A stretch of 36,980 nt of DNA from a virus. Lineage: Duplodnaviria; Heunggongvirae; Uroviricota; Caudoviricetes. Shown one piece after another: positions 1-35,592 of this stretch (positions within the stretch are counted from its first letter, which is position 1; every line of letters begins with the position of its first letter). Below the pieces are notes generated by a model that was not told the DNA's origin, ran no database searches, and saw only the letters and a list, made by a program, of their open reading frames with translations. The position numbers and the translations under genes are program-made. Location: positions 1 to 36,980 of IMG/VR virus record IMGVR_UViG_2713896902_000002; one strand, written 5' to 3'.

Positions 1-1005
1 TTAATCCCCCGTGGACACTGCGTGGACACTCACGCCACCTTTCAGCGGATTAAGGACCACCGCATCCTGCAGGTAATCCGGTGCAAAATGTGCATATGCC
101 ATTGTTTGCTGAATGGTTGCGTGGCCAAGAATCTTCTGAAGCGCAATAATGTTTCCTCCGTTCATCACAAAATGGCTGGCGAACGTATGCCGCAGCACAT
201 GTGCAGCCTGGCCTTTTGGTAAATCGGGCTTAACTCTTTTCAGCGCCAGGCAGAATTCCCGGTACTTCACCTCAAACAAGCCGCCTGTTTCTCTGGTTTT
301 GATCGCCTCACAAACTGCCTGCGAAATTGGCACTGTTCTCTTTCGGCCATTTTTGGTTTCAAGAAACGTCACTCGGTTATGAACTATCTGTTCACCACGG
401 AGCTTACAGGCTTCACTCCAGCGCGCTCCAGTGCTTAAACACAAAAGAGCAACACGCCAGTAATCGCCCTCCAGTATATCGAGCAATAACGCAACTTCCT
501 TCTGGGACAGGAAAGCCATTTCTCGCGGGGATACATAAAGAATGGAGATCCCCCTTACCGGATGTTCTGCATCCCAAAGGCCTATTCTTTTCAGAACAGT
601 AAACATGCCGGATAGTCGGTTCATGTACCTGTTAGCAGATGACGGTTTCAATCCAGCAGCTATCTTTTGAGAACGCCACGCGATAATTTTCAGCTTATCA
701 AGATCCATAGCCTGCATATCAGCGCCAAGCTCATTGATTATGTTGCGCAGTTGTTTTCGGTCTTCTTCCGCCTTACGCCTGTGTTGACCGTGATACATCC
801 ACCACAACTCAAGCAAATCATTTAGCGTTCGGCGATCACGGTAGCCCTGTATATATTCCCGCTTTTCAGCGTTCGCCATGATGTAGCGTTCAGTGGCCAC
901 CGCTACCGATTTTTTGTCAAATACCTTACGCACGCGCTTTCCCTTGCGTCCGTTCGGCCTGATGTCCAGCAAATAACGACCATCTTCGAGCTTCTTAATT
1001 GACAT
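1..1005 (-). CDS. int: P2-type tyrosine integrase (ORF extends to 1020; ATG at MSIKKL preferred)
   Basis: Translation MSIKKLEDGRYLLDIRPNGRKGKR... closely parallels remembered P2 Int (MAIKKLDDGRYEVDIRPTGRNGKR...); contains ARWSE, HVLRHTFAS and MAYAHFAP catalytic-region motifs; C-terminus VSVHAVSTGD resembles P2 ESVHTVSTVE. Confidence 0.93.
   Translation of the reverse strand: MSIKKLEDGRYLLDIRPNGRKGKRVRKVFDKKSVAVATERYIMANAEKREYIQGYRDRRTLNDLLELWWMYHGQHRRKAEEDRKQLRNIINELGADMQAMDLDKLKIIAWRSQKIAAGLKPSSANRYMNRLSGMFTVLKRIGLWDAEHPVRGISILYVSPREMAFLSQKEVALLLDILEGDYWRVALLCLSTGARWSEACKLRGEQIVHNRVTFLETKNGRKRTVPISQAVCEAIKTRETGGLFEVKYREFCLALKRVKPDLPKGQAAHVLRHTFASHFVMNGGNIIALQKILGHATIQQTMAYAHFAPDYLQDAVVLNPLKGGVSVHAVSTGD
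11..33. other. candidate attL core (direct repeat partner of 35802..35824), overlapping the int 3' end
   Basis: gtggacactgcgtggacactcac matches gtggtcactgcgtggacacgcac at 35802..35824 at 21 of 23 positions, direct orientation. Confidence 0.45.
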
Positions 1006-1101
1006 TGCGAAGCCCTCCAATGAACCGCTCTACAATTTCTCCAGCCTCTTTCCAGCAATAATCAGACCAGACAAAGAGCAGGTCTAACCAGTTTTCTGGC
1101 C

Positions 1102-4205: not shown

Positions 4206-7028
4206 GTGGCAACGGAGTACATCAGAGACTGGCAACAACCACGCCATGCAGTCGGTCGCGAGGGGACGGGGGAGCCTGTCCGTCCCTCCCTTCTTTCTTC
4301 CTGGCTGGATGCCTACCGGGCAGAGAACGAGCGCCGCCAGGAAATGGCTGATGCGGCGTTCTCTGCCGCACCGCTGGGCAATCTGATTAATAAAAGCCTG
4401 GACGCACAGGAAAAACAGGACAAAGCCATCACACTGGCAAGAGAAGCCAGAAAACAGGCACGCGGCGCGGTGGATGAAGCAATTGCCGCACTACGTCTGC
4501 TGCCGTCCTATCTGCGTGATCCGCTTATCCGCCATCTCTCTTTCCTGCGCAAAAAACAGGAATCCGATCGTCAGAAAGGCAAAAAGAGCTGGCAGGCTGA
4601 ACGCTACGCGCGCGGAACCCTGCGCAAAATATTCGAACGTCTGGAGCGCACCGACAGACGCTGGCTGACACCGGGTTATCGCTCCCTTGCCGGGCGTGAA
4701 CGCCTGGATGATTTACTTTACCTGCCGCAACTCAACAAACACCAGATACAGACGCTGGCCGTCATGACAGCGGCGATGTTCAGCAGCACCTTCGAAAAAC
4801 TCTGCGATGACTTTGGCGCGACCGATGGCGAGCTGACCATGGATATAACGCTGAAGGCGTATCAGATGCTGGCCCGCATGGCGTTACATCTGCACACAGT
4901 GCCGCCGCATTATGACGCACTGACAACAGACAAAGACCGGAAGAACGAACCGGACACGGAGCTGCTGCCGGGTGCAATCCTCCGCCTGACCTGTGCGGAC
5001 TGGTGGAAACGCAAATTGTGGCTTTTACGTTGCGAATGGAGAGAGGAACAACTCCGCGCTGCCTGTCTGGTTTCCAGAAAAACATCGCCCTATCTGAGTC
5101 AGGAGGCATTAAGTGAATTTCGCGCACAGCGCGAGAAAACACGCGATTTCCTGAAAAGTTTCATGCTGGAAAATGAAGACGGGTTCACGATTGATCTCGA
5201 GACGGTGTATTACGCGGGAGTAAGTAACCCGGTCCACCGTAAGGCAGAAATGATGGCCACCATGAAGGGACTGGAACTTCTGGCCGAAGCCCGTGGCGAC
5301 AGAGCGGTATTTCTGACCGTTACCTGTCCGTCAAAATATCACGCAACAACGGAGAACGGTCATCCGAATCCCAAATGGAACGGCGCCACCATGCGCGATT
5401 CCAGCGATTACCTGGTTAACACTTTTTTTAAGGCGGTCCGCAAAAAACTGAATCGCGACGGCCTGCGCTGGTATGGCATCCGCACGGTGGAGCCACACCA
5501 TGACGGCACCGTGCACTGGCACATGATGGTCTTTGCACATCCTGAAGAAATCGACAGCATCGTGGACATCACCCGTGATATTGCCATTCGCGAAGACCGC
5601 CACGAGCTGGGCAATGACATAACTCCGCGCTTTAAGGCAGAGTACGTCGACGGTTCGAAAGGTACGCCGACCAGCTACATCGCCACCTACATCGGAAAGA
5701 ACCTGGACAGCCGCGCCGTGGATGGCATTGACCCGAAAACAGGCAAGCCACGCGTTGATCACGAAACCGGAAAATCAATGGCCGAGAGCGTGGAACGCGC
5801 CATCGGCTGGGCGCGCCTTCACCGCGTCCGCCAGTTCCAGTTCTTTGGTATCCCCTCCCGTCAGGTATGGCGTGAACTCCGCCGCCTTGCCAGTCAGATG
5901 GCCCGCAACCCGGAAGGTCCACAACGTCTGGAAAATGACGCAATGGATGCGGTACTCGCTGCCGCTGATGCCGGGTGTTTTGCCACCTACATTGAGAAAC
6001 AGGGTGGCGTACTTGTTCCACGCAAGGATTACCTGATTCGCACCGCCTACGACCTCGCAGAAGAGCTGAACGATTACGGCGAGCAAAGCGTACAGATTTA
6101 CGGGATCTGGTCGCCACAAATCGGGGAATCTTCCCGCGTGTGCACGCACCCGGATAACTGGAAGCTGGTAAGACGTAAACCGGAAGCGGAAGACAGCGCC
6201 AACGAAAATGGTTTTGACCTTCAGGGCGGCCCTGCCGCCCCTTGGACTCGTGGCAATAACTGTCCCCGTGTACAGGAAACGAACAACAACGGGACAGAAC
6301 AGCCGGAAGAACGGCCAGCACCGTGGCCGCAGCTCCCTGATGGCGTTGAAGTGAACGAATGGATGCGCTCACTGAAACGGCACGAACGCCGGGCGCTGAT
6401 GCGTTCGCTTCGTGACAAACAGGCAAAAAACAGCAGTGATGAAATGCAGAGCTGGACACAGAGCCGCAAACAGCAGCGGCCTTTGCCTGATAACCACGAA
6501 TTACTCGCTAAAGAATGGCGGGAATCTGCCGAATCTCTCGGCCTGCATATCGGTGAACAGCAGATGCAGCACCTGTTACGGGGCGGCAGCCTGTACGTTG
6601 ACGGCAGCATCATTGCACCGCAGGGATTTGAAATTGTACGCAAACCGGATACCCGCCCGGACAGCCGAATCACGCAGCTCTGGCAGCGCCTGAGCCGTAA
6701 TCACGGCGTAAGCAGCACAGAGATCCGCCATAACCCGGTCGCCAGCTATCTGGAACAACTGGGGGCATCAGACCCCGAAGCCGCCGCACGTCTGGCATCC
6801 ACACTTCAGCAGGACCAGAACACCATGAAAACCCCCGTTACCGTGTTTTCTGACATGCTGCGCGCCATCCGTGACGCAGAGCACGCACAGAGAATCAGTG
6901 AAACCACTGAACGCGCCCACCGCAAAGCAGACCTGCTGCGGGGTAGCCTGACCAGTGGAAACAAAAAACAGACAGAAACGGGACTCACAAATCCCGTAAA
7001 TGAGCAAAAAACGCGCCGCGATATATGA
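4206..7028 (+). CDS. A: P2 gpA-family rolling-circle replication initiator (HUH endonuclease), GTG start, extended C-terminus
   Basis: 940-aa ORF; HUH motif in GTVHWHMMVF and tyrosine-containing YIATYIGKN; position after early genes as in P2. Confidence 0.88.
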   Translation: MATEYIRDWQQPRHAVGREGTGEPVRPSLLSSWLDAYRAENERRQEMADAAFSAAPLGNLINKSLDAQEKQDKAITLAREARKQARGAVDEAIAALRLLPSYLRDPLIRHLSFLRKKQESDRQKGKKSWQAERYARGTLRKIFERLERTDRRWLTPGYRSLAGRERLDDLLYLPQLNKHQIQTLAVMTAAMFSSTFEKLCDDFGATDGELTMDITLKAYQMLARMALHLHTVPPHYDALTTDKDRKNEPDTELLPGAILRLTCADWWKRKLWLLRCEWREEQLRAACLVSRKTSPYLSQEALSEFRAQREKTRDFLKSFMLENEDGFTIDLETVYYAGVSNPVHRKAEMMATMKGLELLAEARGDRAVFLTVTCPSKYHATTENGHPNPKWNGATMRDSSDYLVNTFFKAVRKKLNRDGLRWYGIRTVEPHHDGTVHWHMMVFAHPEEIDSIVDITRDIAIREDRHELGNDITPRFKAEYVDGSKGTPTSYIATYIGKNLDSRAVDGIDPKTGKPRVDHETGKSMAESVERAIGWARLHRVRQFQFFGIPSRQVWRELRRLASQMARNPEGPQRLENDAMDAVLAAADAGCFATYIEKQGGVLVPRKDYLIRTAYDLAEELNDYGEQSVQIYGIWSPQIGESSRVCTHPDNWKLVRRKPEAEDSANENGFDLQGGPAAPWTRGNNCPRVQETNNNGTEQPEERPAPWPQLPDGVEVNEWMRSLKRHERRALMRSLRDKQAKNSSDEMQSWTQSRKQQRPLPDNHELLAKEWRESAESLGLHIGEQQMQHLLRGGSLYVDGSIIAPQGFEIVRKPDTRPDSRITQLWQRLSRNHGVSSTEIRHNPVASYLEQLGASDPEAAARLASTLQQDQNTMKTPVTVFSDMLRAIRDAEHAQRISETTERAHRKADLLRGSLTSGNKKQTETGLTNPVNEQKTRRDI

Positions 7029-7073
7029 AGCGCGCACAAAACAGGCAAAAGCGGGATTTAAAAATCCTGTAAC
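6979..7073. repeat. two imperfect 22-bp repeats, each an internal dyad (cgggactcacaaatcccgtaaa / cgggatttaaaaatcctgtaac), upstream of parM
   Basis: Seen at 6979..7000 and 7052..7073, about 73 bp apart, spanning the end of A and the parM leader; candidate ParR operator/centromere. Confidence 0.3.
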
Positions 7074-7104
7074 CGATTAATTAATCAACATAAGGAAAAG
7101 CTAC

Positions 7105-8064
7105 ATGAAAATTTGTATCGACGACGGCTCCACCAACATCAAGCTGGCATGGACTGAGAACGGCGAACGCAGCAACGCCATCAGCCCGAACAGCTTCAAG
7201 TCGGAATGGTCTGCGCCGTTCGGTGGCACGCAGCCCGCGAACTACATGCTTGATGGCGTGCGCTATGGTTTTGATCCGGTCAGCGATCGCTTTGTCCAGA
7301 CGACCGACACGCAATACCAGTACAGCGATGTGAATGTAATCGCCATTCACCACGCGCTGGTCAAATCAGGCATCACACCACAGGAAGTGGATGTGGTTGT
7401 CACCCTGCCACTGAGCGAATATTTCGACACAAACGCACAGCCGGACATGGCCAACATCAACCGCAAAAAAGCGAACGTTATGCGCCCGGTGGAGTACCAG
7501 AACGGCAAAGCATTCACTATCCGTAACGTACGGGTTATGCCTGAATCCATTCCGGCTGGCTTTAAAGCACTGGCTGACATGAGTCCGTTTGAATCCCTGC
7601 TGATTGTGGATTTAGGCGGAACCACGCTGGATGTGGCAAAGGTTCAGGGACAACTGGCAGGTATCAGCCAGGTGTTTTGCGATCCACACGTAGGCGTTTC
7701 CCTGATGGCCGATGCCGTACTGTCGGTGATGGCCACTAACGGTATGCGTACCAGCCACCACATCGCCAATACCATTATCGAACATCGCCATGATGAAGCC
7801 TGGCTGCGCCAGCACATCCACAATGACGCGCATTACGACAACCTGATGGCGGTTATTCGTGAAAAGGAAGAAACACTGAAACAACGCGTGATCCGCGCGC
7901 TGGCGGTTTTTTCGGGTTACGGGCGGGTGATGGTTGTCGGTGGAGGGGCGGAGATTGTGGCACCCGCTATCCGCAAAGCCTGCGGAGTTAATGCGACTTT
8001 CATCGCGGACGGGGTGCCACAGTATGCTCTGGTTAATGGGCTGTACGCAATGGACAAGGAGTAA
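7105..8064 (+). CDS. parM: ParM/StbA-family actin-like segregation ATPase
   Basis: MKICIDDGSTNIKLAW...YQYSDVNVIAIHHAL...VMPESIPAGF...LIVDLGGTTLDV...VMVVGGGAEI tracks remembered plasmid R1 ParM (MLVFIDDGSTNIKLQW...WQYSDVNVVAVHHAL...VMPESIPAGY...LIIDLGGTTLDI...VMVIGGGAEI). Confidence 0.85.
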   Translation: MKICIDDGSTNIKLAWTENGERSNAISPNSFKSEWSAPFGGTQPANYMLDGVRYGFDPVSDRFVQTTDTQYQYSDVNVIAIHHALVKSGITPQEVDVVVTLPLSEYFDTNAQPDMANINRKKANVMRPVEYQNGKAFTIRNVRVMPESIPAGFKALADMSPFESLLIVDLGGTTLDVAKVQGQLAGISQVFCDPHVGVSLMADAVLSVMATNGMRTSHHIANTIIEHRHDEAWLRQHIHNDAHYDNLMAVIREKEETLKQRVIRALAVFSGYGRVMVVGGGAEIVAPAIRKACGVNATFIADGVPQYALVNGLYAMDKE

Positions 8065-8068
8065 ACCA

Positions 8069-8380
8069 ATGACGACACCAACCAGACGGATAAGTTTCTA
8101 TCTGAAGCCTGCGGCCGTCAAGAACGAAAGCGAAGCATGCGCCTGGCTGGACAGCCTTACACCAGAAGCCCGCAAAAGCGGCCAACGCGTGGCTTTTCTG
8201 GCCGGGCTGGCACTTCTGAAAATGGATCCAGCAGAGGCTTACCGACTGGCTGCATGGGCTGACGATGAGGCGTTATCTGTGACACAAACCAGGACAGAAC
8301 GCCCCGTGTCACAGCCAGTACCAACCGCACAGATAACCAGTCAGATGGCCGGAAATATCCGGGCGCTATTTCCTGAGTAA
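8069..8380 (+). CDS. parR: ParR-like ribbon-helix-helix centromere-binding protein
   Basis: RBS caaggag then ATG 8069; RRISFYLKPAAVKNE...LDSLTPEARKSGQRVAFLAGLALLKMDP...IRALFPE resembles remembered R1 ParR (RRTIAFKLNPDVNQ...LDSIPQGERSRLNRAALTAGLALYRQDP...LRSLFPKE). Confidence 0.7.
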   Translation: MTTPTRRISFYLKPAAVKNESEACAWLDSLTPEARKSGQRVAFLAGLALLKMDPAEAYRLAAWADDEALSVTQTRTERPVSQPVPTAQITSQMAGNIRALFPE

Positions 8381-8386
8381 GCAGAG

Positions 8387-8407
8387 CCAGGGCGGAAACC
8401 GCCCTGG
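8387..8407 (+). terminator. perfect stem-loop ccagggcgg-aaa-ccgccctgg after parR (no T-tract)
   Basis: 9-bp perfect stem directly after parR stop; no U-run, so intrinsic terminator function uncertain. Confidence 0.35.
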
Positions 8408-8561
8408 ATGTAATCAGCAGAGAGTGTGAACCCACACCACATCACGCTCCATGAAATTTGCATAATTTAACTATGATTTTTGCAACTCTCCATTCATAAT
8501 GTTAGTAATAATTAACCAATCTAAACCCATAAGAGCCACCATTGTTAAATTCAGGTGACGT

Positions 8562-9707
8562 ATGAACATTCAACAGCGTATAGCAGAACGCTTGGTTCAG
8601 GCCAGAAACGACGCAGGAATGAGTGCAAGCGCCGTCGCAGATGCGATCGGTGTTGTTCGTCAAACCTACAGTAAGTTTGAGCAGGCGCTAGGCGTCCCAA
8701 GCGTTACCCAACTCATCATGCTCTGCAAGATTTTCGATAAGCCTATCGGGTATTTTTATGAGCAAGATGATGGCGAGTTTCGTTTTGCAATGCGAGCAGA
8801 TAGTCCGGATTTGTTGGATGCCAAACTTCGCAATGAGTTGATTGAAAAGTTAAAAAATATCAATGCAATTGAGGAAGCTGCTGATGCTAATTTGCCAGAA
8901 GATCTTCCTAACTCAATGCCTATTTTTACCGCCAAAGCAGAAGATTTGCGAAGAGTCGAAGATAAGGCTATGGAAGAACGTTTCCGTCTTGGTATAGGAA
9001 ACGCTACTTGCGTTGGTGACATTGTAGCCATTTTGGAAGCATCGGATATTCGAGTAATCCCGTTCAATCGCGAAGAAACCGATAAAGGGATGGTATTCGG
9101 ATTTTCTGCGTTTTCGAACAAATACGGTACCGCGATTTATGTAAATGTTCACGATAGCATTTCAATAGAACGTCAAATCTTCAGTATTTGCCATGAATAT
9201 GCTCATCTTATCTTCCACCGTGATGAGTATGATGGCCCTGCTAAAAGCTATAAAACCAATGGCAAAGCAATTTCACCGGAAGAAAAAGTTGCTAATCACT
9301 TTGCTGCTTGTTTTTTGGTACCAGAAAGCGCATTGCGAAAACAATTCGTCATGCAAGGTGGTGGATGGGCGTATGAGGAAACCGTCCTTAGACTAAAAAG
9401 CATTTTCAGAGTATCAGCCACTTGCATCATCGATCGTCTTAGTAAATGTAATTTAATTAATCAACAAAACACTAGATACCTATGGGCAACCGCCAATCGT
9501 AAAGGTTGGAAGAGACACGAGCCAAATCCCATTAGGGAAGCACTAAATTATAAAGGCCGCCTAACCGTCTTATCGCGTAAAGCATGGGAAGCCGGTTCCG
9601 CGTCGGAAACCTTCATATCTGAACTTTTAGAATTAGACAGAAAAGCTCTCAGCAATCTTCTGGATGAATGGTACGACGAACAGGAGGCCGGAGAGGATGC
9701 CGTTTGA
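8562..9707 (+). CDS. Xre-family HTH fused to ImmA/IrrE-type (M78-like, COG2856) zinc metallopeptidase
   Basis: N-terminal HTH (MNIQQRIAERLVQARNDAGMSASAVADAIGVVRQTYSKFEQALGVPSVTQL); HEXXH in SICHEYAHLIFH; AT-rich upstream region, RBS aggtga; visibly AT-richer than flanking phage genes. Confidence 0.8.
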   Translation: MNIQQRIAERLVQARNDAGMSASAVADAIGVVRQTYSKFEQALGVPSVTQLIMLCKIFDKPIGYFYEQDDGEFRFAMRADSPDLLDAKLRNELIEKLKNINAIEEAADANLPEDLPNSMPIFTAKAEDLRRVEDKAMEERFRLGIGNATCVGDIVAILEASDIRVIPFNREETDKGMVFGFSAFSNKYGTAIYVNVHDSISIERQIFSICHEYAHLIFHRDEYDGPAKSYKTNGKAISPEEKVANHFAACFLVPESALRKQFVMQGGGWAYEETVLRLKSIFRVSATCIIDRLSKCNLINQQNTRYLWATANRKGWKRHEPNPIREALNYKGRLTVLSRKAWEAGSASETFISELLELDRKALSNLLDEWYDEQEAGEDAV

Positions 9708-10215
9708 ATGCCCCAGATGTGTTATCGATACGAATGTACTGTCTGATTTTTACGAAGGTAAATGCTTAGATCTTATCTGGCAAATTTACCCGGGTGGTGT
9801 GTGGATTGACCCCTATGTCTGCGAGGAACTAAAAGCTAAATACAATCTTGATGTTCAGGAACAGCTTACACGCCTGCAACTTCCATACAATTTCACCAAT
9901 GATTACGAACCTGAACATTTTATTGAAATGGCTGAGATAAAAAATCGCAGGAGAGCATTGAAGTATGCGGACATAAGCTGCGTTGTTAACGCGAGAATAC
10001 ATGATGCAACATGTCTTTCGGCGGATAATGCGGTTTATAAAACGTGTGCGGAACGCGGTGTAAAAGCCGCCCGCCACGGAGGGCTACTTCAAGAGGCTGT
10101 GCGCAGGAGACTTATCCACAAACAACAAGCCTTAATGCATTTCCAATTTTTCCTAGATCGTGGGTTAACGATGAAATCTTCTGTTCGAGAACAGATTCTT
10201 GCCAGTTTCGAATGA
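9697..10215 (+). CDS. PIN-like domain nuclease (predicted effector/toxin); alternative start 9664
   Basis: Start overlaps end of the HTH-peptidase gene (RBS caggagg); N-terminal VIDTNVL strand with Asp, later ADISCVVNARIHDATCLSADNAVY fitting the PIN D..IAA.A...L.T.D pattern. Confidence 0.55.
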   Translation: MPFECPRCVIDTNVLSDFYEGKCLDLIWQIYPGGVWIDPYVCEELKAKYNLDVQEQLTRLQLPYNFTNDYEPEHFIEMAEIKNRRRALKYADISCVVNARIHDATCLSADNAVYKTCAERGVKAARHGGLLQEAVRRRLIHKQQALMHFQFFLDRGLTMKSSVREQILASFE

Positions 10216-10248: not shown

Positions 10249-10274
10249 GAGCCGCAATAGCGGCTCTTTTTTTT
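10249..10274 (+). terminator. rho-independent terminator (gagccgcaatagcggctc + T8)
   Basis: Hairpin followed by tttttttt directly after the PIN-like gene stop. Confidence 0.75.
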
Positions 10275-22285: not shown

Positions 22286-24379
22286 ATGACCACAACACGA
22301 AAATTTAAAACCGTTATCACCGATACGGGTGCAAAAAAATTAGCACAGGCAGCCGCACCAGATGGCAACCCCGTCCGCCTGACACATATGGCCGTGGGTG
22401 ATGGTGGCGGTACTTTACCAACGCCAGACAGTAAGCAGACCCGTCTTGTGCATGAGGTGTGGCGACATACCGTTAATCGCGTCACCCTGGACGCAACACA
22501 TCAGAACCGCATTATTGCGGAGCTGGTTATTCCTCCAGAAACGGGCGGATTCTGGATCCGGGAAATTGGTGTGTTTGATGAGCACGGCGATTTAATTGCG
22601 GTGGGCAATACTGCCGAAAGTTACAAGCCAGCCGTTGCCGAAGGGTCCGGGCGTGCGCAAACATTTCGCACCATCCTGGCCGTATCCAGCACGGCCACCG
22701 TGGCGCTTACCGTGGATAACACCATGGTGATGGCCACAGTGGATTACGTGGATGACAAACTGAAAGAGCATGAACAGTCACGACGTCACCCGGATGCCTC
22801 GCTGACCGCAAAAGGTTTTACTCAGTTAAGCAGTGCGACCAACAGTACGTCTGAAGCACTGGCCGCAACGCCGAAAGCGGTAAAGGCCGCCTATGACCTT
22901 GCCAACGGGAAATATACTGCACAGGACGCCACCACAGCGCGAAAAGGCCTTGTCCAGCTCAGTAGTGCAACCAACAGCCCCTCTGAAACGCTGGCTGCGA
23001 CGCCAAAAGCTGTTAAGACGGTAATGGATGAAACGAACAAGAAAGCGCCGCTGTCGAGTCCGGCACTCACCGGAACGCCAACCGCACCAACTGCGCCAAA
23101 GGGTACTAACAATACTCAGATAGCAAACACGGCGTTCGTTATGGCCGCGATTGCCGCACTTGTAGACTCATCACCTGACGCACTGAATACGCTGAACGAG
23201 CTGGCTGCGGCGCTGGGCAACGACCCGAACTTTGCTACAACCATGACAAATATGTTGGCGGGTAAGCAACCGAAGGACGCCACCCTGACGGCGCTGGCCG
23301 GGCTTGCTACTGCGGCAGACAGATTTCCGTATTTTACGGGAAACGACACTGCCAGCCTTGCCACTCTGACAAAAGTCGGGCGGGATATTCTGGCTAAAGC
23401 GACCGTTGCCGCTGTTATCGAATACCTCGGTTTGCAGGAAACGGTAAATCAGGCTGCTGGCGCATTGCAGAAAAACCAGAACGGCGCAGATATTCCAAAC
23501 AAAGATAAATTTACGCAAACAATAGGTGCTTGCCGCTCTTTTCATGGCTTTATTAGCACAGGTGCAGGGAACTGGACAACGGCACAATTTATCGAATGGC
23601 TGGAATCTCAATGGGCTTTCAATCATCCATACTGGATGTGTAAATGCTCATGGTCATACGGCAATAATAAAATTATTACTGACACCGGATGTGGACTTAT
23701 TCACCTTGCGGGTTGTGTTATTGAAGTTATGGGCCATAAAGGCGCCATGACCATTCGTATAACCACACCGAGTACCTCTAGCGGGGGTGGCACTACGAAT
23801 GCGCAATTTATATATATTAACCACGGTTCAGAGTATTTACCTGGCTGGAGACGTGACTACAACACGAAAAATCAGCAGGCCGCTTTTGCTTTAGAGCAAA
23901 CAGGAAGCACTGTTGGAAATGATAAAGCAGTTGGCTGGAACTGGAATAGCGGGGTATATAACGCAAATATTGGTGGCGCATCGACATTAATCCTCCACTT
24001 CAATATGAACGCGGGTAGCTGCCCTGCTGTTCAATTCCGTGTGAATTATAAGAATGGCGGTATTTATTATCGTTCAGCGCGTGATGGTTATGGCTTCGAG
24101 GCTGACTGGTCAGAGTTTTACACCACAACCCGAAAACCATCAGCGGCAGATGTTGGGGCATATACTAAAGCGGAATGTAATACGCGGTTTATTACAGGTA
24201 TCCGATTAGGTACAAAATCGTCAGCGCAAACATGGAATGGCCCGGGCTGGGGCGATAAATCTGGTTACGTTGTTACAGGTTCCGTTAACTCAAACAAAGA
24301 TGAACTTATTGATACAACACAGGCAAGGCCAGTGCAATATTGTATCAATGGCACCTGGTATAATGCGGGAAGTATTTAA
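22286..24379 (+). CDS. H: tail fibre protein H (constant N-terminal part plus currently expressed variable C-terminal part)
   Basis: 697-aa ORF; internal repeat SSATNS-SE-LAATPKAVK typical of tail fibres; crossover site lies inside the gene at about codon 377. Confidence 0.9.
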   Translation: MTTTRKFKTVITDTGAKKLAQAAAPDGNPVRLTHMAVGDGGGTLPTPDSKQTRLVHEVWRHTVNRVTLDATHQNRIIAELVIPPETGGFWIREIGVFDEHGDLIAVGNTAESYKPAVAEGSGRAQTFRTILAVSSTATVALTVDNTMVMATVDYVDDKLKEHEQSRRHPDASLTAKGFTQLSSATNSTSEALAATPKAVKAAYDLANGKYTAQDATTARKGLVQLSSATNSPSETLAATPKAVKTVMDETNKKAPLSSPALTGTPTAPTAPKGTNNTQIANTAFVMAAIAALVDSSPDALNTLNELAAALGNDPNFATTMTNMLAGKQPKDATLTALAGLATAADRFPYFTGNDTASLATLTKVGRDILAKATVAAVIEYLGLQETVNQAAGALQKNQNGADIPNKDKFTQTIGACRSFHGFISTGAGNWTTAQFIEWLESQWAFNHPYWMCKCSWSYGNNKIITDTGCGLIHLAGCVIEVMGHKGAMTIRITTPSTSSGGGTTNAQFIYINHGSEYLPGWRRDYNTKNQQAAFALEQTGSTVGNDKAVGWNWNSGVYNANIGGASTLILHFNMNAGSCPAVQFRVNYKNGGIYYRSARDGYGFEADWSEFYTTTRKPSAADVGAYTKAECNTRFITGIRLGTKSSAQTWNGPGWGDKSGYVVTGSVNSNKDELIDTTQARPVQYCINGTWYNAGSI
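23415..23440. other. left gix/hix-like inversion crossover site inside H (ttatcgaatacctcggtttgcaggaa)
   Basis: 23 of 26 identical to the reverse complement of the site at 26335..26360; homology extends about 40 bp; encodes YLGLQETVN shared with the alternative fibre segment. Confidence 0.75.
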
Positions 24380-24381
24380 TT

Positions 24382-24915
24382 ATGATGCATTTAAAAAATA
24401 TCAAATCAGGAAACCCCAAAACCGTAGAACAATATGAATTAACACGACAATTTGGCGTTGTCTGGTTGTATTCTGATGACGGTAGAAACTGGTATGAGGA
24501 ACAGAAAAACTTTCAGGAAGATACAATAAAATTTGCTTACACTGCCGATGGAATCATTGTGGCTATAGATAAGGATGTATCGACAATTAATCCTGAAGGT
24601 TTAAGCGTTGTTGAGGTTCCTGATATTACAGCCAATAGGCGGGTCGATATTTCTGGTAACTGGATGTTCAAAGATGGCGCAGTGATAAAGCGGGAATATA
24701 CCGAAGAAGAACAGAGACAACAGGCGGAAAATGAGAAGCAAAATCTGTTACAACTCGTCAGGGATAAAACTCAGCTATGGGATTCTCAGCTACGACTTGG
24801 AATTATTTCTGCTGAGAACAAACAAAAATTGACCGAGTGGCTGCTCTACGCGCAGAAAGTGGAGTCTACGGATACCTCTGTCCTGCCAGTAACGTTTCCC
24901 GAACAACCAGAATGA
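24382..24915 (+). CDS. G: tail fibre assembly chaperone G (within invertible segment)
   Basis: [21 protein letters not shown]...; paralogous to the oppositely oriented G' copy. Confidence 0.85.
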   Translation: MMHLKNIKSGNPKTVEQYELTRQFGVVWLYSDDGRNWYEEQKNFQEDTIKFAYTADGIIVAIDKDVSTINPEGLSVVEVPDITANRRVDISGNWMFKDGAVIKREYTEEEQRQQAENEKQNLLQLVRDKTQLWDSQLRLGIISAENKQKLTEWLLYAQKVESTDTSVLPVTFPEQPE

Positions 24916-24942
24916 GAGAAGGCCCGCATCGGGCCTTAATTT

Positions 24943-25470
24943 TTACTCTGGTTTTTGTGGCCATTCTGGCTTTGCCGTATCCACGCGGCTGACCAGAACG
25001 CTGTAGCGTTCCCAGGCTTCCAGTCGTGTACGTTCCTCATCTGTTGCCATATTCAGCCTGACAGCACGTTCCAGAAGCTGGATGACTGATTCAGCTTCTG
25101 AAAGTAACGCGGCCTTTTGTGATTCGGCCTGTTGTTGCTGTTCGTCTGCTGTATAAATCCGCTTAACCACAGTTCCGTCCTTAAACACCCACTTCCCTGA
25201 ATCATCGGCACGACGATTGGCTGTTATATCGGGAATCTCAACGACGCTAAAGCCTTCGGGATTAAGTGTTGAGGCATCTTTGGTTATGGCAACAATAATA
25301 TTATTTTCGTCGTATACAATCTTTATGGTGTCGTCCTGAAAGTTATTTACTTCCTCATACCAGTTTTTACCGTCTTCGGACCATAACCAGATAACATCAA
25401 AAATTTTTGTTAGCTGATATTGTTCTTTTGTTTTTGGATTTCCGGACTTAATATTTTTTAAATGCTGCAT
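24943..25470 (-). CDS. alternative tail fibre assembly chaperone G' (opposite orientation)
   Basis: [21 protein letters not shown]..., paralog of G, convergent with it. Confidence 0.8.
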
Positions 25471-25473
25471 AAT

Positions 25474-26334
25474 TTACACCTGTGCGACGTTATACCATGT
25501 GCCATTGATGTATTTTTGTATTGGTCTGAAGATGGCTTCATCATCGCCATCTACTTCACCAATGATTCTTAATCCGGTAATTGCGTGTCCGGCTTTTTCA
25601 TAACGACCACCACGCGCCATCAATTGAACAACACGCGTACCCAGGCGAACATCTTTTACATAGCGTGAATCAAAATTCCCCCAGTTGCTGGGCTGTATCT
25701 GACCGTTAACAGAAAATATTACCGAGTTATCTGTATTTCGCTGGCTATAGAAATGCCATCCTGCCTCATCGCCTAACTCTGCAACTACTGGACGGGTTGA
25801 AGCACCCCATAAATTAAACGTTGCATTCTTTGTGGAGGTGTTGGAGCTGGATAGCGAGAACTTTTTACTATCACCTGCCTGAATGTTTTTAAAAGCAATA
25901 GCAACTCCATTCTGAAAGCGGAATACTCGCTGACTATTAGCGTAAACATCCAGAATACCATCACCATTCTGTTTGAATCCGGTGTCATTATCACCAAGAA
26001 CAATAGAGCTACCACCTAACGCATTCGTCGTACCAACTCCAAGACTGCCATTAATGACGGCATTTACCAGAATATTTAGTGCATCCCATTTCAGCGTCAT
26101 CAGGTCTTTTGTTGTGGTGCTCTGGCGGCTTCTCCATTTGAAATATTCATTGCCGTTATCTCCCGTTTCAAACCACATGAATGAATCGGTGTCACCATCG
26201 GCATCATTTTTAAATCCAATCTTTGCCCAGTCAGTATTTCGAATCCAGGCAAGAATTGAGTCGTTTTCAAAAGTAAGTCCACCGGACAAGGTATCGCCTG
26301 TCTTTTGGACGGCGTTACCAGCCTTGTTTACCGT
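25474..26334 (-). CDS. alternative variable C-terminal tail fibre segment H'v (silent; no start of its own)
   Basis: Minus-strand ORF begins at the crossover with ...LGLQETVNKAG... matching H; ends ...YINGTWYNVAQV like the H terminus ...CINGTWYNAGSI. Confidence 0.7.
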   Translation of the reverse strand, partial: TVNKAGNAVQKTGDTLSGGLTFENDSILAWIRNTDWAKIGFKNDADGDTDSFMWFETGDNGNEYFKWRSRQSTTTKDLMTLKWDALNILVNAVINGSLGVGTTNALGGSSIVLGDNDTGFKQNGDGILDVYANSQRVFRFQNGVAIAFKNIQAGDSKKFSLSSSNTSTKNATFNLWGASTRPVVAELGDEAGWHFYSQRNTDNSVIFSVNGQIQPSNWGNFDSRYVKDVRLGTRVVQLMARGGRYEKAGHAITGLRIIGEVDGDDEAIFRPIQKYINGTWYNVAQV

Positions 26335-26360
26335 TTCCTGTAAACCGAGGTTTTTGATAA
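26335..26360. other. right gix/hix-like inversion crossover site (TTCCTGTAAACCGAGGTTTTTGATAA)
   Basis: Near-exact match to remembered Gin/Hin-family recombination sites; inverted relative to the 23415 site; 55 bp upstream of the invertase start. Confidence 0.8.
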
Positions 26361-26414
26361 TGGCCGTTTCTGGCCAGCGTGGCATGATTTGTGCTTTTGA
26401 GCGGGAGATTCAAC

Positions 26415-26567
26415 GTGCTGATTGGCTATGTACGCGTGTCAACAAATGACCAGAACACGGATTTGCAACGCAATGCACTCAATAGCGCAGGATGTGAACT
26501 GATTTTTGAAGATAAAATCAGCGGAACAACTGAGAAGACCAGAGGAAACAAAAAACCGCCAATCTGA
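26415..26567 (+). pseudogene. truncated serine DNA invertase (Gin/Hin/Cin/Pin family), N-terminal 50 codons only
   Basis: [38 protein letters not shown]... matches the invertase N-terminus including catalytic-Ser region, then stops; full-length proteins are about 190 aa. Confidence 0.75.
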
Positions 26568-26589: not shown

Positions 26590-27078
26590 TCAGAACAACC
26601 CTTTAACTGAACTGGCCGCGCTGTTAAGGGATGATGTCACCTTATCTTTGAAGCCTGACAGCATATCGCTGAACGATGAGGATTGCAGGCGTTCCCGTAA
26701 ATCCTCATCACAGCGTTCAAGGGTCAGGGAAAACTCTATCTTTTTCGCTTTCCCGTAGCGATCCAGTTCAGAGCGGGTCGTGCTCGTTTCGGTCAGAACA
26801 TACATACCGTAAATCTGCCCGACACCATCAATCAGAGGCCACGGGCGCCCCACATACGCCTGCGTGGTCAGCAGCGACAGCGACACTTCGCCGCCTGTAA
26901 TCTCAGGATAAAGCACGCCGGAAAGAACGATGCGATCATCACCTGCACCGATATACTGCCAGCTTGCTGAACGGTTAATGCGCTCGTTTTTCACATGCCG
27001 CCAGCTTTTGTTTTGCTGTAACTGCTGATGCGGCAATGTGCGCAACTCAAAAACAAACATGCCGTAGACCATCATCAT
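26590..27078 (-). CDS. U: tail protein U (P2 gpU family)
   Basis: MMMVYGMFVFELRTLPHQQLQQNKSWRH resembles remembered P2 gpU N-terminus (MMMVLGLFVF.LRT.PYQE.QR..SWRH). Confidence 0.85.
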   Translation of the reverse strand: MMMVYGMFVFELRTLPHQQLQQNKSWRHVKNERINRSASWQYIGAGDDRIVLSGVLYPEITGGEVSLSLLTTQAYVGRPWPLIDGVGQIYGMYVLTETSTTRSELDRYGKAKKIEFSLTLERCDEDLRERLQSSSFSDMLSGFKDKVTSSLNSAASSVKGLF

Positions 27079-27090
27079 GGCCAGGCCTCC

Positions 27091-29943
27091 TTACTCTTTA
27101 TCGTAAAAGCTGCCACGCCCGGCACGGGCGCGACGGTCCATTTCCGCCCTGACCATTTCCCCGACCAGTTTCGCCAGTTCGCGGGGATTCTGCGTAACAA
27201 CGTTATGCAGATGGACATGGATTTCACCACAAAATCCGGAGGCAACAGGCTCCCGGTTACGGGAAGTTGCAGGAACTGATGCCACAGGAGATCGTATGGC
27301 CTCCGCCACCGAACGGGAGCTGGCCGCAACAACAGGGACCAGCGCCGGAGGCAGCGGAGCCGGAACCACGGGTGTGATATTAATTGCGGGGGCGGGCTTA
27401 CTGACCTGCGCAATCTTCCGCTCCTGCCACTCCCCACGAACAGCAAGTGCGCGGGGCAAGCTCTTAAAGACAATATCGCCGGGGCCGATACGCTTTTTCG
27501 TCTCATCAACCAGCTTGCCTGTGTTATCTGCAATTTTGCTGAGCCTGCGCAGCGTGCCTGTATTATTGTCTGTGAGCGGCTTGCCCCCTTTGGGGTTATC
27601 GCCTTTGGGTTTATCCCCTTCAGGAGCTTTCCCCGCAGGCTTCGGCGGATTGATTTTCGCGATGTCTCCCTGAAACAGAGCAACTTTTTCCTGAAGAGCG
27701 GCCGCACGCTGTGCGTCTTCGATTTTCTTGCGCGCCCTTTCCGCTTCATCCGGAAGGACGCCAAGTTTTTCCAGTATCCATGCCAGCGTATCCAGCAGCA
27801 TTTTGGCAGGCGTCAGGACAAGCTGTAACGCACCTCCAAGAACATTGCCGAATACCTCGCCAGCACTGGTGCATTTATCCAGCGTTTCCTTGCTGGATTC
27901 CATCGGTGACAGCAGCGATGTAAACCAGTTAAAGACCTGAATCACGCCATCACGAACCAGTTCGAAAACAGGACCAAACCGTTCAAAGGTTTCACGCAAC
28001 GGAGCCAGCCGCTCCATAATCCCGTTGAACACCCCGATATAAAACGCCTTGATGGGTTCCCAGTATTTCCAGATGAGAACCGCCGCAGCCACAAACGCTG
28101 CAACAATCAACCCGACCGGGCTGAACAGTGCCCCGACAGCGCCCCCCAGTAACGAGATGGCCCCCGTCACCATTCCCCATAGCGCTGGCAGAACTCTGAC
28201 AGCATTCATTGAGCCGGTCAGAAGGGAAAAGCCAAGACGCAGTTTTGCCAGCGGGCCAGCAAGCACCCCAAGAGCAAGCGACAACGAGCCAACCGTTGCA
28301 GTCATTGCCAGCAGCGCACCGCCTGCTATCAGTAACTGGCGCGTCAGTGCCGGATGAGCCTGCGCCAGTGCCGTAACTCCGGCAACCACTTTTGTGAGCC
28401 ACTGCGTGACAGAACGCAGTGGACCGTCAATCAGATCCGCAATGCGGATACGCAGCCCTTCCCATGCACTGCCGAGTGATTTCAGGTCGCCATCAAGGTT
28501 ATTGGCCATAACCTTTGCCGTGCGTTCAGCCTCACCACGTGCCCCCTCAAGCTCTTTTCTCAGTTTGGGCAGGGAACCGTTACCCGCCGCATCAACGAGG
28601 GCCATAAGCGATGTAAAGGCCTCCTGTCCGGCGATGTCCTTAAAGAAAGATACCCGGTCAACTTCCCCGTATTTACGGGTGGCTTTATAAAGGTCGGCCA
28701 GCACATCCTCCATCGGGCGCATTTTGCCGTTCGCGTCAGAGACAGACACCCCCAGCTCTTTCAGGGCATCAGCCGCAACTTTTGGTGGCGATGCCAGACG
28801 AGCCAGGCTGGCACGCAACGCCGTACCTGCATCACTCCCCCTGATCCCCATATTCGCCAGCACGCCCGCCATCGCTGCGGCCTGCTCCAGCGATATTCCC
28901 AGCTTACCCGCCACCGGGCCTGCATATTTCATGGTTTCGCCCAGCGCGCGAAGGTCGGTGTTAGTACGGGTAAACGCCGCAGTAAGTGTGTCACCGACCC
29001 GGTCCATCTGGTCAGCAGAGAGGCCGAACTGCGTCAGGATATTGGAGCCTATATCAGCCGTCTCGCCGAGTTCGACGCCACCTGCCAGCGCCATATTAAG
29101 AACACCGGGCAATGCGGCCTGAATGGCCTGCGGAGTAAAACCAGCCATTGCCAGAAAGCTCTGCCCACTGGCGGCATCACTCGCAGTAAACTGCGTTTCA
29201 GAGCCGAGCTTTAGCGCCTGCTCACGCAGCGCCTTAAACTGCGGGCTGTTCTGGTCAATTCGCGTCAGCGCCTGCACACGGGACATCTCTTTCCCGAATC
29301 CGATAGCGGGCTGCAAAAAGCGCCCGGCAGCATAGCCGCCAGCCGCTGCCGCACCAGTTGCCAGCGCACAACCTGTTTTCAGTTTTCCCGCTGTTTCCTG
29401 CGCGCGTGAATACCGCTCACGCGCACGCGTTACACGCGCAAGCGCCTGCCGTTCGCGTTCAAGCTGGTTGTTGTACTGTTCGGTGCGTCTGATGGCCTGC
29501 TGGATGGTGTTATCGCTGCCTGTCAGGGAAATACCGTGGCGTTTCAGTTCTCCGCCAAGCTCCCGCATTTTCTGGATTTCCCGTGCGCGAGATTCATTCA
29601 GGCGTTCAAGCCGGGTACTTAACTGCTGCATCAGCCTTTGTTGTTTTTCGCTGAGCACAGTACCCGTGCGTTGTAACTGGTGAAGGGCGTTAAGCTGGCG
29701 TCGTGCTTTCACGATGCCGCCATCCGCTTTACTGACAGCATCGCGGGCACGCTCAAATGAACGCGCCTGACGCTCGAGATTTTTGATTGCCCCCTGCGTT
29801 CGCTGGATGGAGTCACCAAGTTGCCCCATCAGGCGGCGGACGTTTTCGGTGGGTCGGGTCAGCCTGTCTACAGCACTGAAGGCGACCCGAATGTCAAGAG
29901 TCTTCATTGTCTGCATTCCCACTGCGAAGTGCCGCCCGCTCAC
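27091..29943 (-). CDS. T: tail tape measure protein (P2 gpT family)
   Basis: 950-aa ORF, coiled-coil N-terminus, Ala/Gly-rich hydrophobic central region; between E and U. Confidence 0.9.
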   Translation of the reverse strand: MSGRHFAVGMQTMKTLDIRVAFSAVDRLTRPTENVRRLMGQLGDSIQRTQGAIKNLERQARSFERARDAVSKADGGIVKARRQLNALHQLQRTGTVLSEKQQRLMQQLSTRLERLNESRAREIQKMRELGGELKRHGISLTGSDNTIQQAIRRTEQYNNQLERERQALARVTRARERYSRAQETAGKLKTGCALATGAAAAGGYAAGRFLQPAIGFGKEMSRVQALTRIDQNSPQFKALREQALKLGSETQFTASDAASGQSFLAMAGFTPQAIQAALPGVLNMALAGGVELGETADIGSNILTQFGLSADQMDRVGDTLTAAFTRTNTDLRALGETMKYAGPVAGKLGISLEQAAAMAGVLANMGIRGSDAGTALRASLARLASPPKVAADALKELGVSVSDANGKMRPMEDVLADLYKATRKYGEVDRVSFFKDIAGQEAFTSLMALVDAAGNGSLPKLRKELEGARGEAERTAKVMANNLDGDLKSLGSAWEGLRIRIADLIDGPLRSVTQWLTKVVAGVTALAQAHPALTRQLLIAGGALLAMTATVGSLSLALGVLAGPLAKLRLGFSLLTGSMNAVRVLPALWGMVTGAISLLGGAVGALFSPVGLIVAAFVAAAVLIWKYWEPIKAFYIGVFNGIMERLAPLRETFERFGPVFELVRDGVIQVFNWFTSLLSPMESSKETLDKCTSAGEVFGNVLGGALQLVLTPAKMLLDTLAWILEKLGVLPDEAERARKKIEDAQRAAALQEKVALFQGDIAKINPPKPAGKAPEGDKPKGDNPKGGKPLTDNNTGTLRRLSKIADNTGKLVDETKKRIGPGDIVFKSLPRALAVRGEWQERKIAQVSKPAPAINITPVVPAPLPPALVPVVAASSRSVAEAIRSPVASVPATSRNREPVASGFCGEIHVHLHNVVTQNPRELAKLVGEMVRAEMDRRARAGRGSFYDKE

Positions 29944-34992: not shown

Positions 34993-35133
34993 ATGTCGCA
35001 AAAATCGCTTACGGCCATCACGTTCTGCGTGACGGTAATCCTCATCATCTGGATGCTGCACGGTTCGCTATGTGAAATACGGATGAGCTTCTGGGGAGCG
35101 GAGTTTGCGGCGTTCTTACAGTGTAAGCAGTAA
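34993..35133 (+). CDS. Hok/Gef-family-like small membrane toxin (46 aa), paralog of 34582..34719
   Basis: MSQKSLTAITFCVTVILIIWMLHGSLCEIRMSFWGAEFAAFLQCKQ: exact SLCEIR motif; RBS aaggag; GC-rich structured leader upstream. Confidence 0.45.
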   Translation: MSQKSLTAITFCVTVILIIWMLHGSLCEIRMSFWGAEFAAFLQCKQ

Positions 35134-35269
35134 GGAAACCGCGACGGGGGAGCAATCCCCCGTCAATCGGTTGCCAGGGTAAGGCCGAAATGGCACCCAA
35201 ATTTAAATTGAGGCCCATCAGTAAAAAGAGGTGGGCTTAACGCTTGTTTAAATTTGAAAGGAACTCTTT

Positions 35270-35566: not shown

Positions 35567-35592
35567 CACCTAACGGACGAATCAGAATGACA

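Follow-up and report, generated by a model that had tools for sequence, protein, structure and literature searches.

The window analysed here, a stretch of DNA of 36,980 nucleotides, belongs to a P88-like (Xuanwuvirus) phage of the P2 family, and its integrase and C/Cox switch, both retained in all members examined, mark it as temperate. The window begins at the integrase stop codon and thus has no left host flank, so that the term integrated prophage, used in a first-pass annotation of this DNA together with the well-founded assignment to the temperate P2 family, rests on the homologues, almost all of which are chromosomal. The locus of interest (Table 1) lies behind gene A, the P88 orthologue of which is annotated as 'replication endonuclease', and is followed by cargo consisting of an RmrA-like HTH/M78 gene and a PIN gene. 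Judged by its protein sequences and layout, it is a genuine, complete type II (ParMRC-like) DNA-segregation cassette with both proteins intact, and the R1-type ParM/ParR pair with repeated dyads described earlier is thereby confirmed.

Table 1. Features of the parMR locus and its surroundings (positions in the window)
Feature	Position	Strand	Basis and remarks
Gene A, P2 gpA-type rolling-circle replication endonuclease, 940 aa	4206..7028	+	Pfam Phage_GPA, E 5.4e-129
Repeat A, 38 nt, putative ParR site 1, within the gene A coding sequence	6962..6999	.	Repeat and dyad scans
Repeat B, 38 nt, putative ParR site 2, may double as operator	7035..7072	.	Repeat and dyad scans
Weak candidate sigma-70 promoter (inferred)	7057..7085	+	-35 TTTAAA 7057-7062, 17-nt spacer, -10 ATTAAT 7080-7085
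parM, predicted actin-fold filament-forming ATPase, 319 aa	7105..8064	+	Pfam, PDB alignment, motifs
parR, putative adaptor for centromere-like sites, 103 aa	8069..8380	+	Pfam PF10784, alignments
GC-rich hairpin CCAGGGCGG-AAA-CCGCCCTGG, without a T-run	8387..8407	+	-19.9 kcal/mol, z-score -4.7
Hok/Gef gene	34993..35133

The parM reading frame is as first described, and profile and PDB searches both give ParM: the product matches Pfam StbA_N (E 1.2e-81) and the ParM C-terminal domain (E 5.1e-69), and residues 2-316 align along the full length of R1 ParM (PDB 1mwk, E 7.4e-93). Identity with plasmid ParMs is about 47-52%, and true plasmids yielded no ParM more than 52% identical and no detectable ParR of the P88-lineage type. 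All ATPase motifs (DDGST, PES, DLGGTT, GGGAE) are kept in the window and in 15 of 15 phage-clade ParMs, while across 106 ParMs most motif positions do not vary at all and the others hardly do, the final E of GGGAE being the least conserved. The ParM phylogeny contains two phage clades, each with 100% bootstrap. As had been assumed, canonical P2-type phages are devoid of ParM, since a tblastn search of 50,697 phage records matched nothing beyond the P88-like phages and the P1-like phage-plasmid D6. In phage record 503458, parM is split into three pieces. In some E. coli lineages parM is truncated, e.g., in a cluster of 649 sequences with a frameshift at codon 224, and the gene is therefore dispensable for prophage persistence.

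The parR frame was likewise upheld, with its start at 8069 instead of 8070, and its product matches Plasmid_stab_B (PF10784, E 8.3e-25). It comprises an N-terminal RRISFYLKP strand with helices, a hypervariable linker at about residues 66-93, and a C-terminal NI(R/Q)xxFP tail; the residues R6/F10/Y11/L12/P14 of the DNA-binding strand and N96/F101 of the ParM-binding tail, common to plasmid-type ParRs, are kept. In the alignment, the P88-lineage ParR lacks a helix of about 25 aa found in other ParRs, which could alter higher-order assembly; the AlphaFold2 monomer model is of low confidence. ParR alleles are numerous and share 51-95% identity, while ParM stays at 91% or above. Alleles only about 53% identical have the DNA-binding strand and the dyads in common, therefore the alleles do not define DNA specificities.

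Upstream of parM, the two dyad-containing repeats are real, longer than reported, and agree at 30 of 38 positions; the best match over 1000 dinucleotide shuffles averaged 21.2, peaked at 27 and never reached 30. Their placement in the parM leader holds for the second repeat, but the first falls within the final codons of gene A, whose 3' end overlaps it. Each repeat contains a 20-bp dyad, ACGGGACT-CACA-AATCCCGT at 6978-6997 and GCGGGATT-TAAA-AATCCTGT at 7051-7070, and these share the consensus ACGGGAYT-N4-AATCCYGT at a distance of 73 bp; the entire window holds no further good match. Among nine P88-like copies the dyad arms are conserved and the 4-bp centre is variable. The two-site spacing of 72-73 bp recurs in Plesiomonas and Hafnia prophages, in which the site sequences have diverged and ParM is only about 61% identical, and in all three lineages a conserved TTAATCAA and a ribosome-binding site follow 30-33 bp downstream of the start of site B. 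A standard scan returned no consensus promoter for parMR. The weak candidate from a relaxed scan fits 8 of 12 consensus positions, has its -35 element in the centre of dyad B and occurs at the equivalent place in P88 and in an E. albertii copy; a comparable candidate in Hafnia has its -35 within the spacer of its site B. Since parM follows gene A on the same strand after a gap of 76 bp, with no terminator found between them and no consensus promoter, co-expression of parMR with the replication genes is likely.

The first-pass annotation regarded the locus as possible cargo of a hotspot, which the comparison of related phages does not support. Nucleotide identity of 94-98% to phages P88, PhiSM and others spans 6900-8410, and homology among P88-like phages extends through parR and breaks at 8380-8410 after the hairpin, at which the conserved module stops and the variable hotspot begins on its left side. 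Of 5426 complete E. coli genomes, 1308 carry the cassette and 1356 the 3' part of gene A. P2-like prophages from four further genera (Plesiomonas, Hafnia, Serratia and Enterobacter) also have the order gpA-parM-parR, the arrangement gpA-parM-parR-cargo-portal is common to five lineages, and this synteny is kept across five genera despite divergence of ParM to 53-62% identity. By homology and gene order, parMR is thus part of the replication module and not hotspot cargo, which is reported here for the first time, as are the two-site geometry in three lineages and the purifying selection on both genes (dN/dS of 0.08 for parM and 0.24 for parR, compared with 0.22 for gpA). The cassette itself is fixed in the common P88-like coliphages and already annotated there, as 'plasmid segregation protein ParM' and 'partition protein'. 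In the defective CP-933T-type prophage of O157:H7, gpA, parM and parR are intact and the head genes are gone. The passages covered of an O157 proteome supplement mention no CP-933T ParM.

The most likely role of the cassette, to which we give about an even chance, is to move or segregate circular extrachromosomal phage DNA after infection or induction, as a component of the P88-like replication module. ParR dimers would bind the two ACGGGATT-N4-AATCCCGT dyads, which their spacing of seven helical turns would place on the same face of the DNA, the C-terminal tails of ParR would capture the ends of ATP-ParM filaments, and the growing filaments would push the site-bearing molecules apart. The substrate is presumed to be the circular phage genome; P2-type rolling-circle replication yields monomeric circles, so that both halves of the cell, or the daughter cells, could receive copies through spreading or segregation. 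Most parMR expression is likely to be read-through from the early Cox-to-A operon, and ParR on dyad B probably represses the weak local promoter as well. This transient episomal role is our best guess. Against it, there are just two dyads (four half-sites), which may serve solely as an operator, and a single infecting genome cannot be partitioned, so any benefit would need some prior replication. The intact genes of the defective CP-933T-type prophage would also fit a role in the lysogen.

A longer extrachromosomal life, one of the readings offered in the first-pass annotation, is an alternative. A facultative phage-plasmid would persist over many generations as a low-copy circular episome, for instance where attB is occupied or absent, with replication from gpA and its origin, segregation by ParMRC and post-segregational killing by Hok/Gef. 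The window has homologues of both stability loci of R1, ParMRC and a Hok-type locus. A whole P88-like genome also exists as a 34,461-bp circular 'plasmid' (NZ_CP148288.1). A related isolate has this phage as an integrated copy, and the 12 differences between the two lie mostly at GATC/CCWGG sites and in homopolymers and so resemble errors of long-read sequencing. PLSDB contains other phage-sized plasmids with P2-type capsids, e.g., in Zymomonas and Arsenophonus. The idea is not new, as a sentence in Rousset et al. 2022 (PMC9122126) states that about a quarter of P2-like phages have a putative partition system, "perhaps" for plasmid maintenance. However, 1454 of the 1456 places in the 5426 complete E. 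coli genomes lie on chromosomes. Of the two remaining 'plasmid' places, one was inspected, and its 438-kb replicon is full of chromosomal genes and has the prophage beside yecA. The free circle is a single record among 72,556 plasmids, for which spontaneous induction would account, and the integrase and C/Cox switch are kept in all members examined. A stable phage-plasmid lifestyle is thus not supported, and we regard it as unlikely. Slightly more doubtful is an exapted function in the lysogen, in which ParR and ParM would disturb how related incoming phages or plasmids are partitioned, by way of incompatibility or exclusion, or bring the host another benefit. The position at the edge of the gpA-portal defence hotspot, the intact cassette in the defective O157 prophage and a weak candidate promoter that would permit expression in lysogens agree with such a function, and the diversity of ParR next to uniform ParM resembles the diversification of incompatibility determinants. 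On the other hand, divergent ParR alleles share one set of dyads, the cassette is fixed in the lineage and not variable, and no PADLOC defence model matched; cross-reaction with plasmids is unlikely, because plasmid-type loci have ATCTC-type iterons, to which the dyad consensus bears no relation, and this ParR is undetectable in true plasmids.

The dyads might instead act as RNA hairpins (attenuator, processing signal or stabiliser) in the gene A-parM transcript, with the true centromere, if any, elsewhere. Both fold (-9.0 and -8.8 kcal/mol, z-scores -3.1 and -2.1), and the two changed arm positions in the window's dyad B form G-U wobbles. We consider this improbable, as 3 of 5 arm changes among P88-like copies break pairing with no compensatory double change, the Plesiomonas sites are 81% identical direct repeats with a stem of only 3-4 bp, and both arms are conserved to one consensus, as a dimeric DNA-binding protein predicts. 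Even less probable is an action on the integrated prophage, whereby ParMR separates sister dyad sites on the chromosome, or ParR is a mere autoregulated DNA-binding protein, affecting how the local chromosome is handled or the prophage retained. Nearly all copies have the sites on a chromosome, and both genes are under purifying selection in prophages, but such selection is equally expected from lytic and infectious cycles, and we know of no ParMRC system serving a chromosomal locus. That the cassette is a decaying remnant of plasmid-phage recombination, functionless today, has very little probability. Truncated and frameshifted parM clusters and the record with parM in pieces could be read this way; selection on parM stricter than on gpA, ATPase motifs conserved throughout the phage clades and synteny over five genera count strongly against it.

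Compared with known systems, the proposed transient role on circular phage DNA concerns a cassette akin in layout to the ParMRC (parA/stb) locus of plasmids R1 and NR1, with which it shares the order repeats, parM, parR, repeats separated by a spacer region upstream of parM, a ParM of about 50% identity over the full length with the same ATPase motifs, and a ParR of the same Pfam family with the conserved C-terminal tail. In R1, parC consists of ten 11-bp iterons, in two sets that flank the promoter, whereas the window has two 20-bp dyads; an R1-like iteron array is present in L013. The window also differs in its shorter ParR without the additional helix and in its host, an integrating P2-family phage instead of a low-copy plasmid, and both its ParM and its ParR type stand apart from those of plasmids in general. 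The same cassette is found in P88 (NC_026014, gp17/gp18), Citrobacter phage PhiSM, Xuanwuvirus P884B11 and CP-933T of E. coli O157:H7, all with gpA upstream of it and hotspot cargo and portal downstream, and they differ from the window only in the cargo 3' of parR and by minor substitutions in the dyad centres. D6 StbA/ParM, the only other ParM homologue among the phage records (47% identity, full length), shows a temperate phage using an R1-type ParM, but D6 is a 91-kb non-integrating plasmid prophage, unlike the integrating, chromosomal P88-like phages. The best functional analogue is AlpC/AlpA/alpS of the Corynebacterium glutamicum prophage CGP3, likewise an actin-like ATPase, a DNA-binding adaptor and cis sites in an integrated prophage. 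By description, AlpC belongs to a distant actin-like family in an actinobacterial siphophage-like element and is set apart from the close R1-type ParM of the window. This system acts on the excised, replicating CGP3 DNA and is needed for efficient viral DNA replication (PMC4446434, PMC5539076), and it thus offers a precedent for the role that we propose by analogy for parMR.

Sequence searches place a type II (ParMRC) partition cassette immediately downstream of gene A in this P88-like phage. ParM belongs to the ParM/StbA family of actin-fold ATPases: both domains are present, with Pfam matches far beyond the curated cut-offs (StbA_N, E 1.2e-81; ParM C-terminal domain, E 5.1e-69), and the ParM of plasmid R1 (PDB 1mwk and others) aligned to residues 2-316 with an E of 7.4e-93. 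The nucleotide-binding and hydrolysis motifs DDGST (residues 6-10), PES (146-148), DLGGTT (169-174) and GGGAE (279-283) are intact and are kept in all 15 phage-clade ParMs; among 106 aligned ParMs most motif positions are invariant with few single exceptions, the final E of GGGAE being the least conserved. The partner protein matched PF10784 (Plasmid_stab_B, the ParR/StbB family; E 8.3e-25), and no solved ParR structure in the PDB matched it by sequence at E up to 1. These matches confirm the ParM/ParR locus proposed in the first-pass annotation, and the non-ParM actin-like family, raised there as the way in which the proposal might fail, gave way in the profile and PDB searches to a close R1-type ParM. 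The repeats that it described in the parM leader stood as two significant 38-nt copies, of which repeat A lies in codons of gene A and not in a leader.

Features of the partition cassette and of the phage genes discussed with it (window positions)
Feature	Position	Strand	Size	Description
Tyrosine integrase ORF	1..1020	minus		Left edge of the window; the stop codon is the window start
Gene A	4206..7028		940 aa	P2 gpA-type replication endonuclease; Phage_GPA E 5.4e-129
Repeat A	6962-6999		38 nt	Inside the last codons of gene A
Repeat B	7035-7072		38 nt	Upstream of parM
parM	7105..8064	+	319 aa	From the ORF list
parR	8069..8380		103 aa	ATG at 8069
Hairpin	8387-8407			-19.9 kcal/mol, z -4.7; at the homology break, with variable cargo after it
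Hok/Gef toxin ORF	34993..35133	+	46 aa	PF01848 E 3.7e-7; also in P88 (gp52) and in the circular record NZ_CP148288.1

Alignments show ParR to be tripartite, with a predicted N-terminal RRISFYLKP strand and helices, a hypervariable linker (residues ~66-93) and a C-terminal tail. The strand residues are invariant; the AlphaFold2 monomer, modelled from a 26-sequence alignment with a pLDDT of 57, contains helices but no strand and is of too low confidence to bear out a ribbon-helix-helix DNA-binding domain. The C-terminal motif NI(R/Q)xxFP is invariant in 26 phage-lineage ParRs and, because its N96 and F101 are common to plasmid-type ParRs, the tail is probably the ParM-binding peptide, so that the ParR tail of a type II system also appears to be in place. 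The ParR of the P88 lineage is without a helix of ~25 aa that is present in other ParRs. Pairwise Nei-Gojobori comparison of six P88-like copies gave dN/dS values of 0.08 for parM, 0.24 for parR and 0.22 for gpA. The alleles of E. coli prophages share at least 91% identity in ParM and 51-95% in ParR, and ParR alleles that are ~53% identical differ neither in the strand sequence nor in the dyads. A recombination break among these copies (proteins P0121-P0201) lies ~55 bp into parR, at about window position 8123. We consider it nearly certain that ParM and ParR form a working pair, with the dyads as putative cognate sites. Large clusters of truncated relatives of this ParM were also found (proteins P0010, P0017 and P0006), one frameshifted after residue 224 (649 members), another of a 188-aa form (555 members) and a third of a 261-aa partial form (414 members), which indicates that some host lineages hold a parM pseudogene; part of these clusters may be contig-end fragments.

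The putative centromere consists of two dyad sites upstream of parM; the R1-like, plasmid-type locus L013 has a classical array with some ten ATCTC iterons. Repeats A and B, located with a repeat finder, are 79% identical and 73 bp apart, and the best 38-nt match of 30 in the 281-nt region exceeds both the mean (21.2) and the maximum (27) of 1000 dinucleotide shuffles. Inside each repeat is a 20-bp dyad with the consensus ACGGGATT-N4-AATCCCGT, the arms of which are conserved among nine P88-like copies while the 4-bp centre varies; no other good match to the dyad occurs in the whole 36,980-base window. Two 26-nt repeats 72 bp apart are found in Plesiomonas and two dyads 73 bp apart in Hafnia, and in both, as in the window, a conserved TTAATCAA directly in front of the ribosome-binding site follows 30-33 bp downstream of the start of the second site. 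Across the three, the sequences of the sites have diverged. The Serratia/Enterobacter clade has instead an inverted repeat of 14-20 nt, the arms of which are separated by 26-28 nt. Conserved geometry with diverged sequence is what would be expected of sites co-evolving with a binding protein. The other reading of the dyads, as RNA hairpins and not ParR sites, is improbable: it is weakened by the three of five arm substitutions that break pairing and by the absence of compensatory pairs. Rfam at the gathering threshold returned no RNA family in the window.

A standard scan of positions 6800-8700 gave no sigma-70 consensus promoter, and no terminator was found between gene A and parM. Under relaxed settings a weak candidate promoter appeared with its -35 element in the centre of dyad B, with an equivalent in P88 and in the E. 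albertii copy, and Hafnia has a comparable candidate with the -35 element inside its own site B. The simplest reading, both parts of which we infer, is that transcription of the early Cox-to-A operon would continue into parMR, so that the cassette would be expressed together with replication, and that ParR would repress the weak local promoter. In the passages of the proteome supplement that were available, ParM and ParR do not appear among the proteins of uninduced O157.

The carrier belongs to the P2 family (Peduoviridae), genus Xuanwuvirus, as shown by a P2-type gene set and order and by near-identity to P88. Its gpA and Cox match P2-type Pfam families, the ORFs in the tail of the window have aligned counterparts in P88 whose annotations are portal, terminase, capsid and tail proteins, and identity to P88 is 82-95% across most of the window. 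The segment 6900-8450 is 94-98% identical in P88, PhiR44_2, P884B11, Chuche, Citrobacter phage PhiSM and others. The window also encodes a C repressor and Cox, and the same integrase/C/Cox set is found in P88 and in the Plesiomonas relative. The tail-fibre and tail-fibre-assembly segment (23415-26530) is inverted relative to P88, with window 23415-25680 matching P88 26922-24650, and most of the P88 DNA invertase gene (26977-27564) is without a counterpart in the window, so the tail-fibre switch may be locked. The right end (35200-36980) differs from both P88 and NZ_CP148288.1 and probably represents another variable region, with a zinc-ribbon/TM2-domain ORF (35270-35566), a 92-aa ORF and a 327-aa ORF reaching the last window base; a clear host flank is not visible there.

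Several findings favour the cassette as a core part of the phage rather than cargo. The P88-like homology extends across gene A, parM and parR and breaks off at 8380-8410, and the 3' part of gene A is present in 1356 E. coli genomes versus 1308 with parMR; this break after parR and the near-equal counts speak against variable cargo of the gpA-portal defence hotspot. PADLOC returned no match for ParM or ParR, and a defence reading is rejected. In Plesiomonas, Hafnia, Serratia and Enterobacter ludwigii the related ParMs, 53-62% identical, are all encoded by P2-like prophages, where gpA (with one or two small genes after it in some) is followed by ParM, ParR, cargo and portal. At 49% identity the relatives belong to conjugative elements or integrated plasmids, and among true plasmids no ParM above 52% identity was found and this ParR type was undetectable. 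In the neighbour-joining tree the bootstrap is 100% both for P88/Hafnia/Plesiomonas and for Serratia/Enterobacter; a single group of all P2-prophage ParMs was recovered with a bootstrap of only 49%, and we therefore claim two supported clades and not one. Together these findings make the association with P2-family phages an old one and not a recent capture. The distant relatives were obtained by protein search and contig look-ups; a contig scan with ParM peptides, in which exact-peptide seeding finds close relatives only, gave three loci (E. albertii, Salmonella and 'Vagococcus'). The last of these, with 96% protein identity to the E. coli phage version, is on a 226-kb contig of a Gram-positive assembly (NZ_JBQPOM010000071.1, 'Vagococcus sp. 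WN89Y'), most likely a contaminated or mislabelled one.

The hotspot cargo of the window itself (8562-10215, plus strand) is followed by a strong intrinsic terminator (10249-10266). Its first protein (381 aa) has an HTH and an M78 peptidase domain and matches PADLOC RmrA (2.8e-35) and the NCBIfam spr1629 repressor/antitoxin family, and the second (183 aa), overlapping the first, has a PIN domain and a weak PDC-S70 match. The cargo looks like a toxin-antitoxin or defence pair.

The cassette is already known, as it is well annotated and has been remarked on in print, so both the observation and its leading interpretation are public. RefSeq P88 names the genes 'plasmid segregation protein ParM' and 'partition protein', PGAP does the same in E. 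coli, and Rousset et al. 2022 (PMC9122126) devote one sentence to a putative partition system in P2-like phages. Our literature searches, which covered P88, its genus Xuanwuvirus, CP-933T and prophage-borne ParM, otherwise turned up only 'fitness factor' listings and no functional study of the cassette. P88-like prophages are among the commonest of E. coli, are helpers of P4-like satellites and carry defence hotspots. The locus is present in 24% of complete E. coli genomes (1308 of 5426), at 1454 chromosomal and 2 plasmid places.

This distribution bears on the lifestyle proposed by the first-pass annotation, which had set the locus inside an integrated P2-like prophage and read it as the mark of a phage-plasmid or as exapted hotspot cargo. 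The P2-family carrier, the chromosomal setting of its homologues and the R1-type cassette stand, and neither reading is supported as such, cargo in view of the homology break, the genome counts and PADLOC, and habitual phage-plasmid life in view of the chromosomal position of 1454 of 1456 places, with a single circular record. Maintenance of the P1, N15, SSU5 or D6 type is thus not seen, and the lineage does not normally live as a stable plasmid prophage. Nor does lysogeny look independent of integration: the integrase and C/Cox are present, and integrated copies adjoin pdxB and yecA. Apart from a single circle, the records labelled 'plasmid' are large replicons; the one inspected, of 438 kb, bears chromosomal genes and has the prophage beside yecA. 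The circular record NZ_CP148288.1, a 34,461-bp circle with a whole P88-like genome, is the only such record in PLSDB. It comes from a cat E. coli isolate, and a human isolate of the same sequencing series (NZ_CP148378.1, 2654387-2698854) has this phage as an integrated copy adjoining pdxB. The two copies have 12 differences, mostly at GATC/CCWGG sites or homopolymers, which look like long-read errors and leave several genes, the repressor among them, seemingly frameshifted. A circle assembled after spontaneous induction is the cheaper explanation for this record. Several phage-sized plasmid records (30-37 kb) encode a P2-family major capsid, among them those of Zymomonas mobilis ZM4/CP4, Arsenophonus nasoniae, Enterobacter soli and Haematospirillum, and these may be P2-type phage-plasmids or excised prophages.

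Plasmid R1 carries two stability loci, parMRC and hok/sok. With its Hok/Gef toxin ORF the phage has homologues of both, which leaves room for a facultative episomal phase; Rfam at the gathering threshold gave no Sok or hok RNA family. A facultative plasmid state of P88-like phages is nonetheless unlikely given the chromosomal places. We would rate as unlikely a broader proposal, in which gpA/ori, ParMRC and Hok would keep a low-copy circle segregating for generations, before or without integration, or alternatively ParMRC would be needed for lysogeny to be established, by bringing replicated copies into both daughter cells. If true, it would mean a lifestyle that combines features of integrative prophages and phage-plasmids, achieved through an unusually small two-dyad centromere.

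We hypothesize, at about even chances, that after infection or induction the cassette acts on the circular phage DNA outside the chromosome, where it would spread or segregate the replicated circles. A role confined to the lytic cycle should be taken with caution, given the truncated parM of some host lineages and a defective CP-933T-type prophage that keeps gpA, an intact 319-aa parM and parR with the head genes gone. In this last prophage, from E. coli O157:H7 (NZ_CP066756.1, 4606-8783), the portal-to-tail-fibre region has been lost by an IS3-associated deletion. An exclusion or incompatibility function in the lysogen is quite unlikely, action on the integrated locus is very improbable, and decay with no present function is scarcely credible. 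Action on extrachromosomal circles has a precedent in AlpC/AlpA of the integrated Corynebacterium prophage CGP3, which acts on circular extrachromosomal phage DNA (PMC4446434, PMC5539076). If the P88-like cassette moves phage DNA, it would test the minimum size of a ParR-binding site, here two dyads, blur the line between integrative prophages and phage-plasmids, and provide a genetically tractable Gram-negative equivalent of CGP3 AlpAC.
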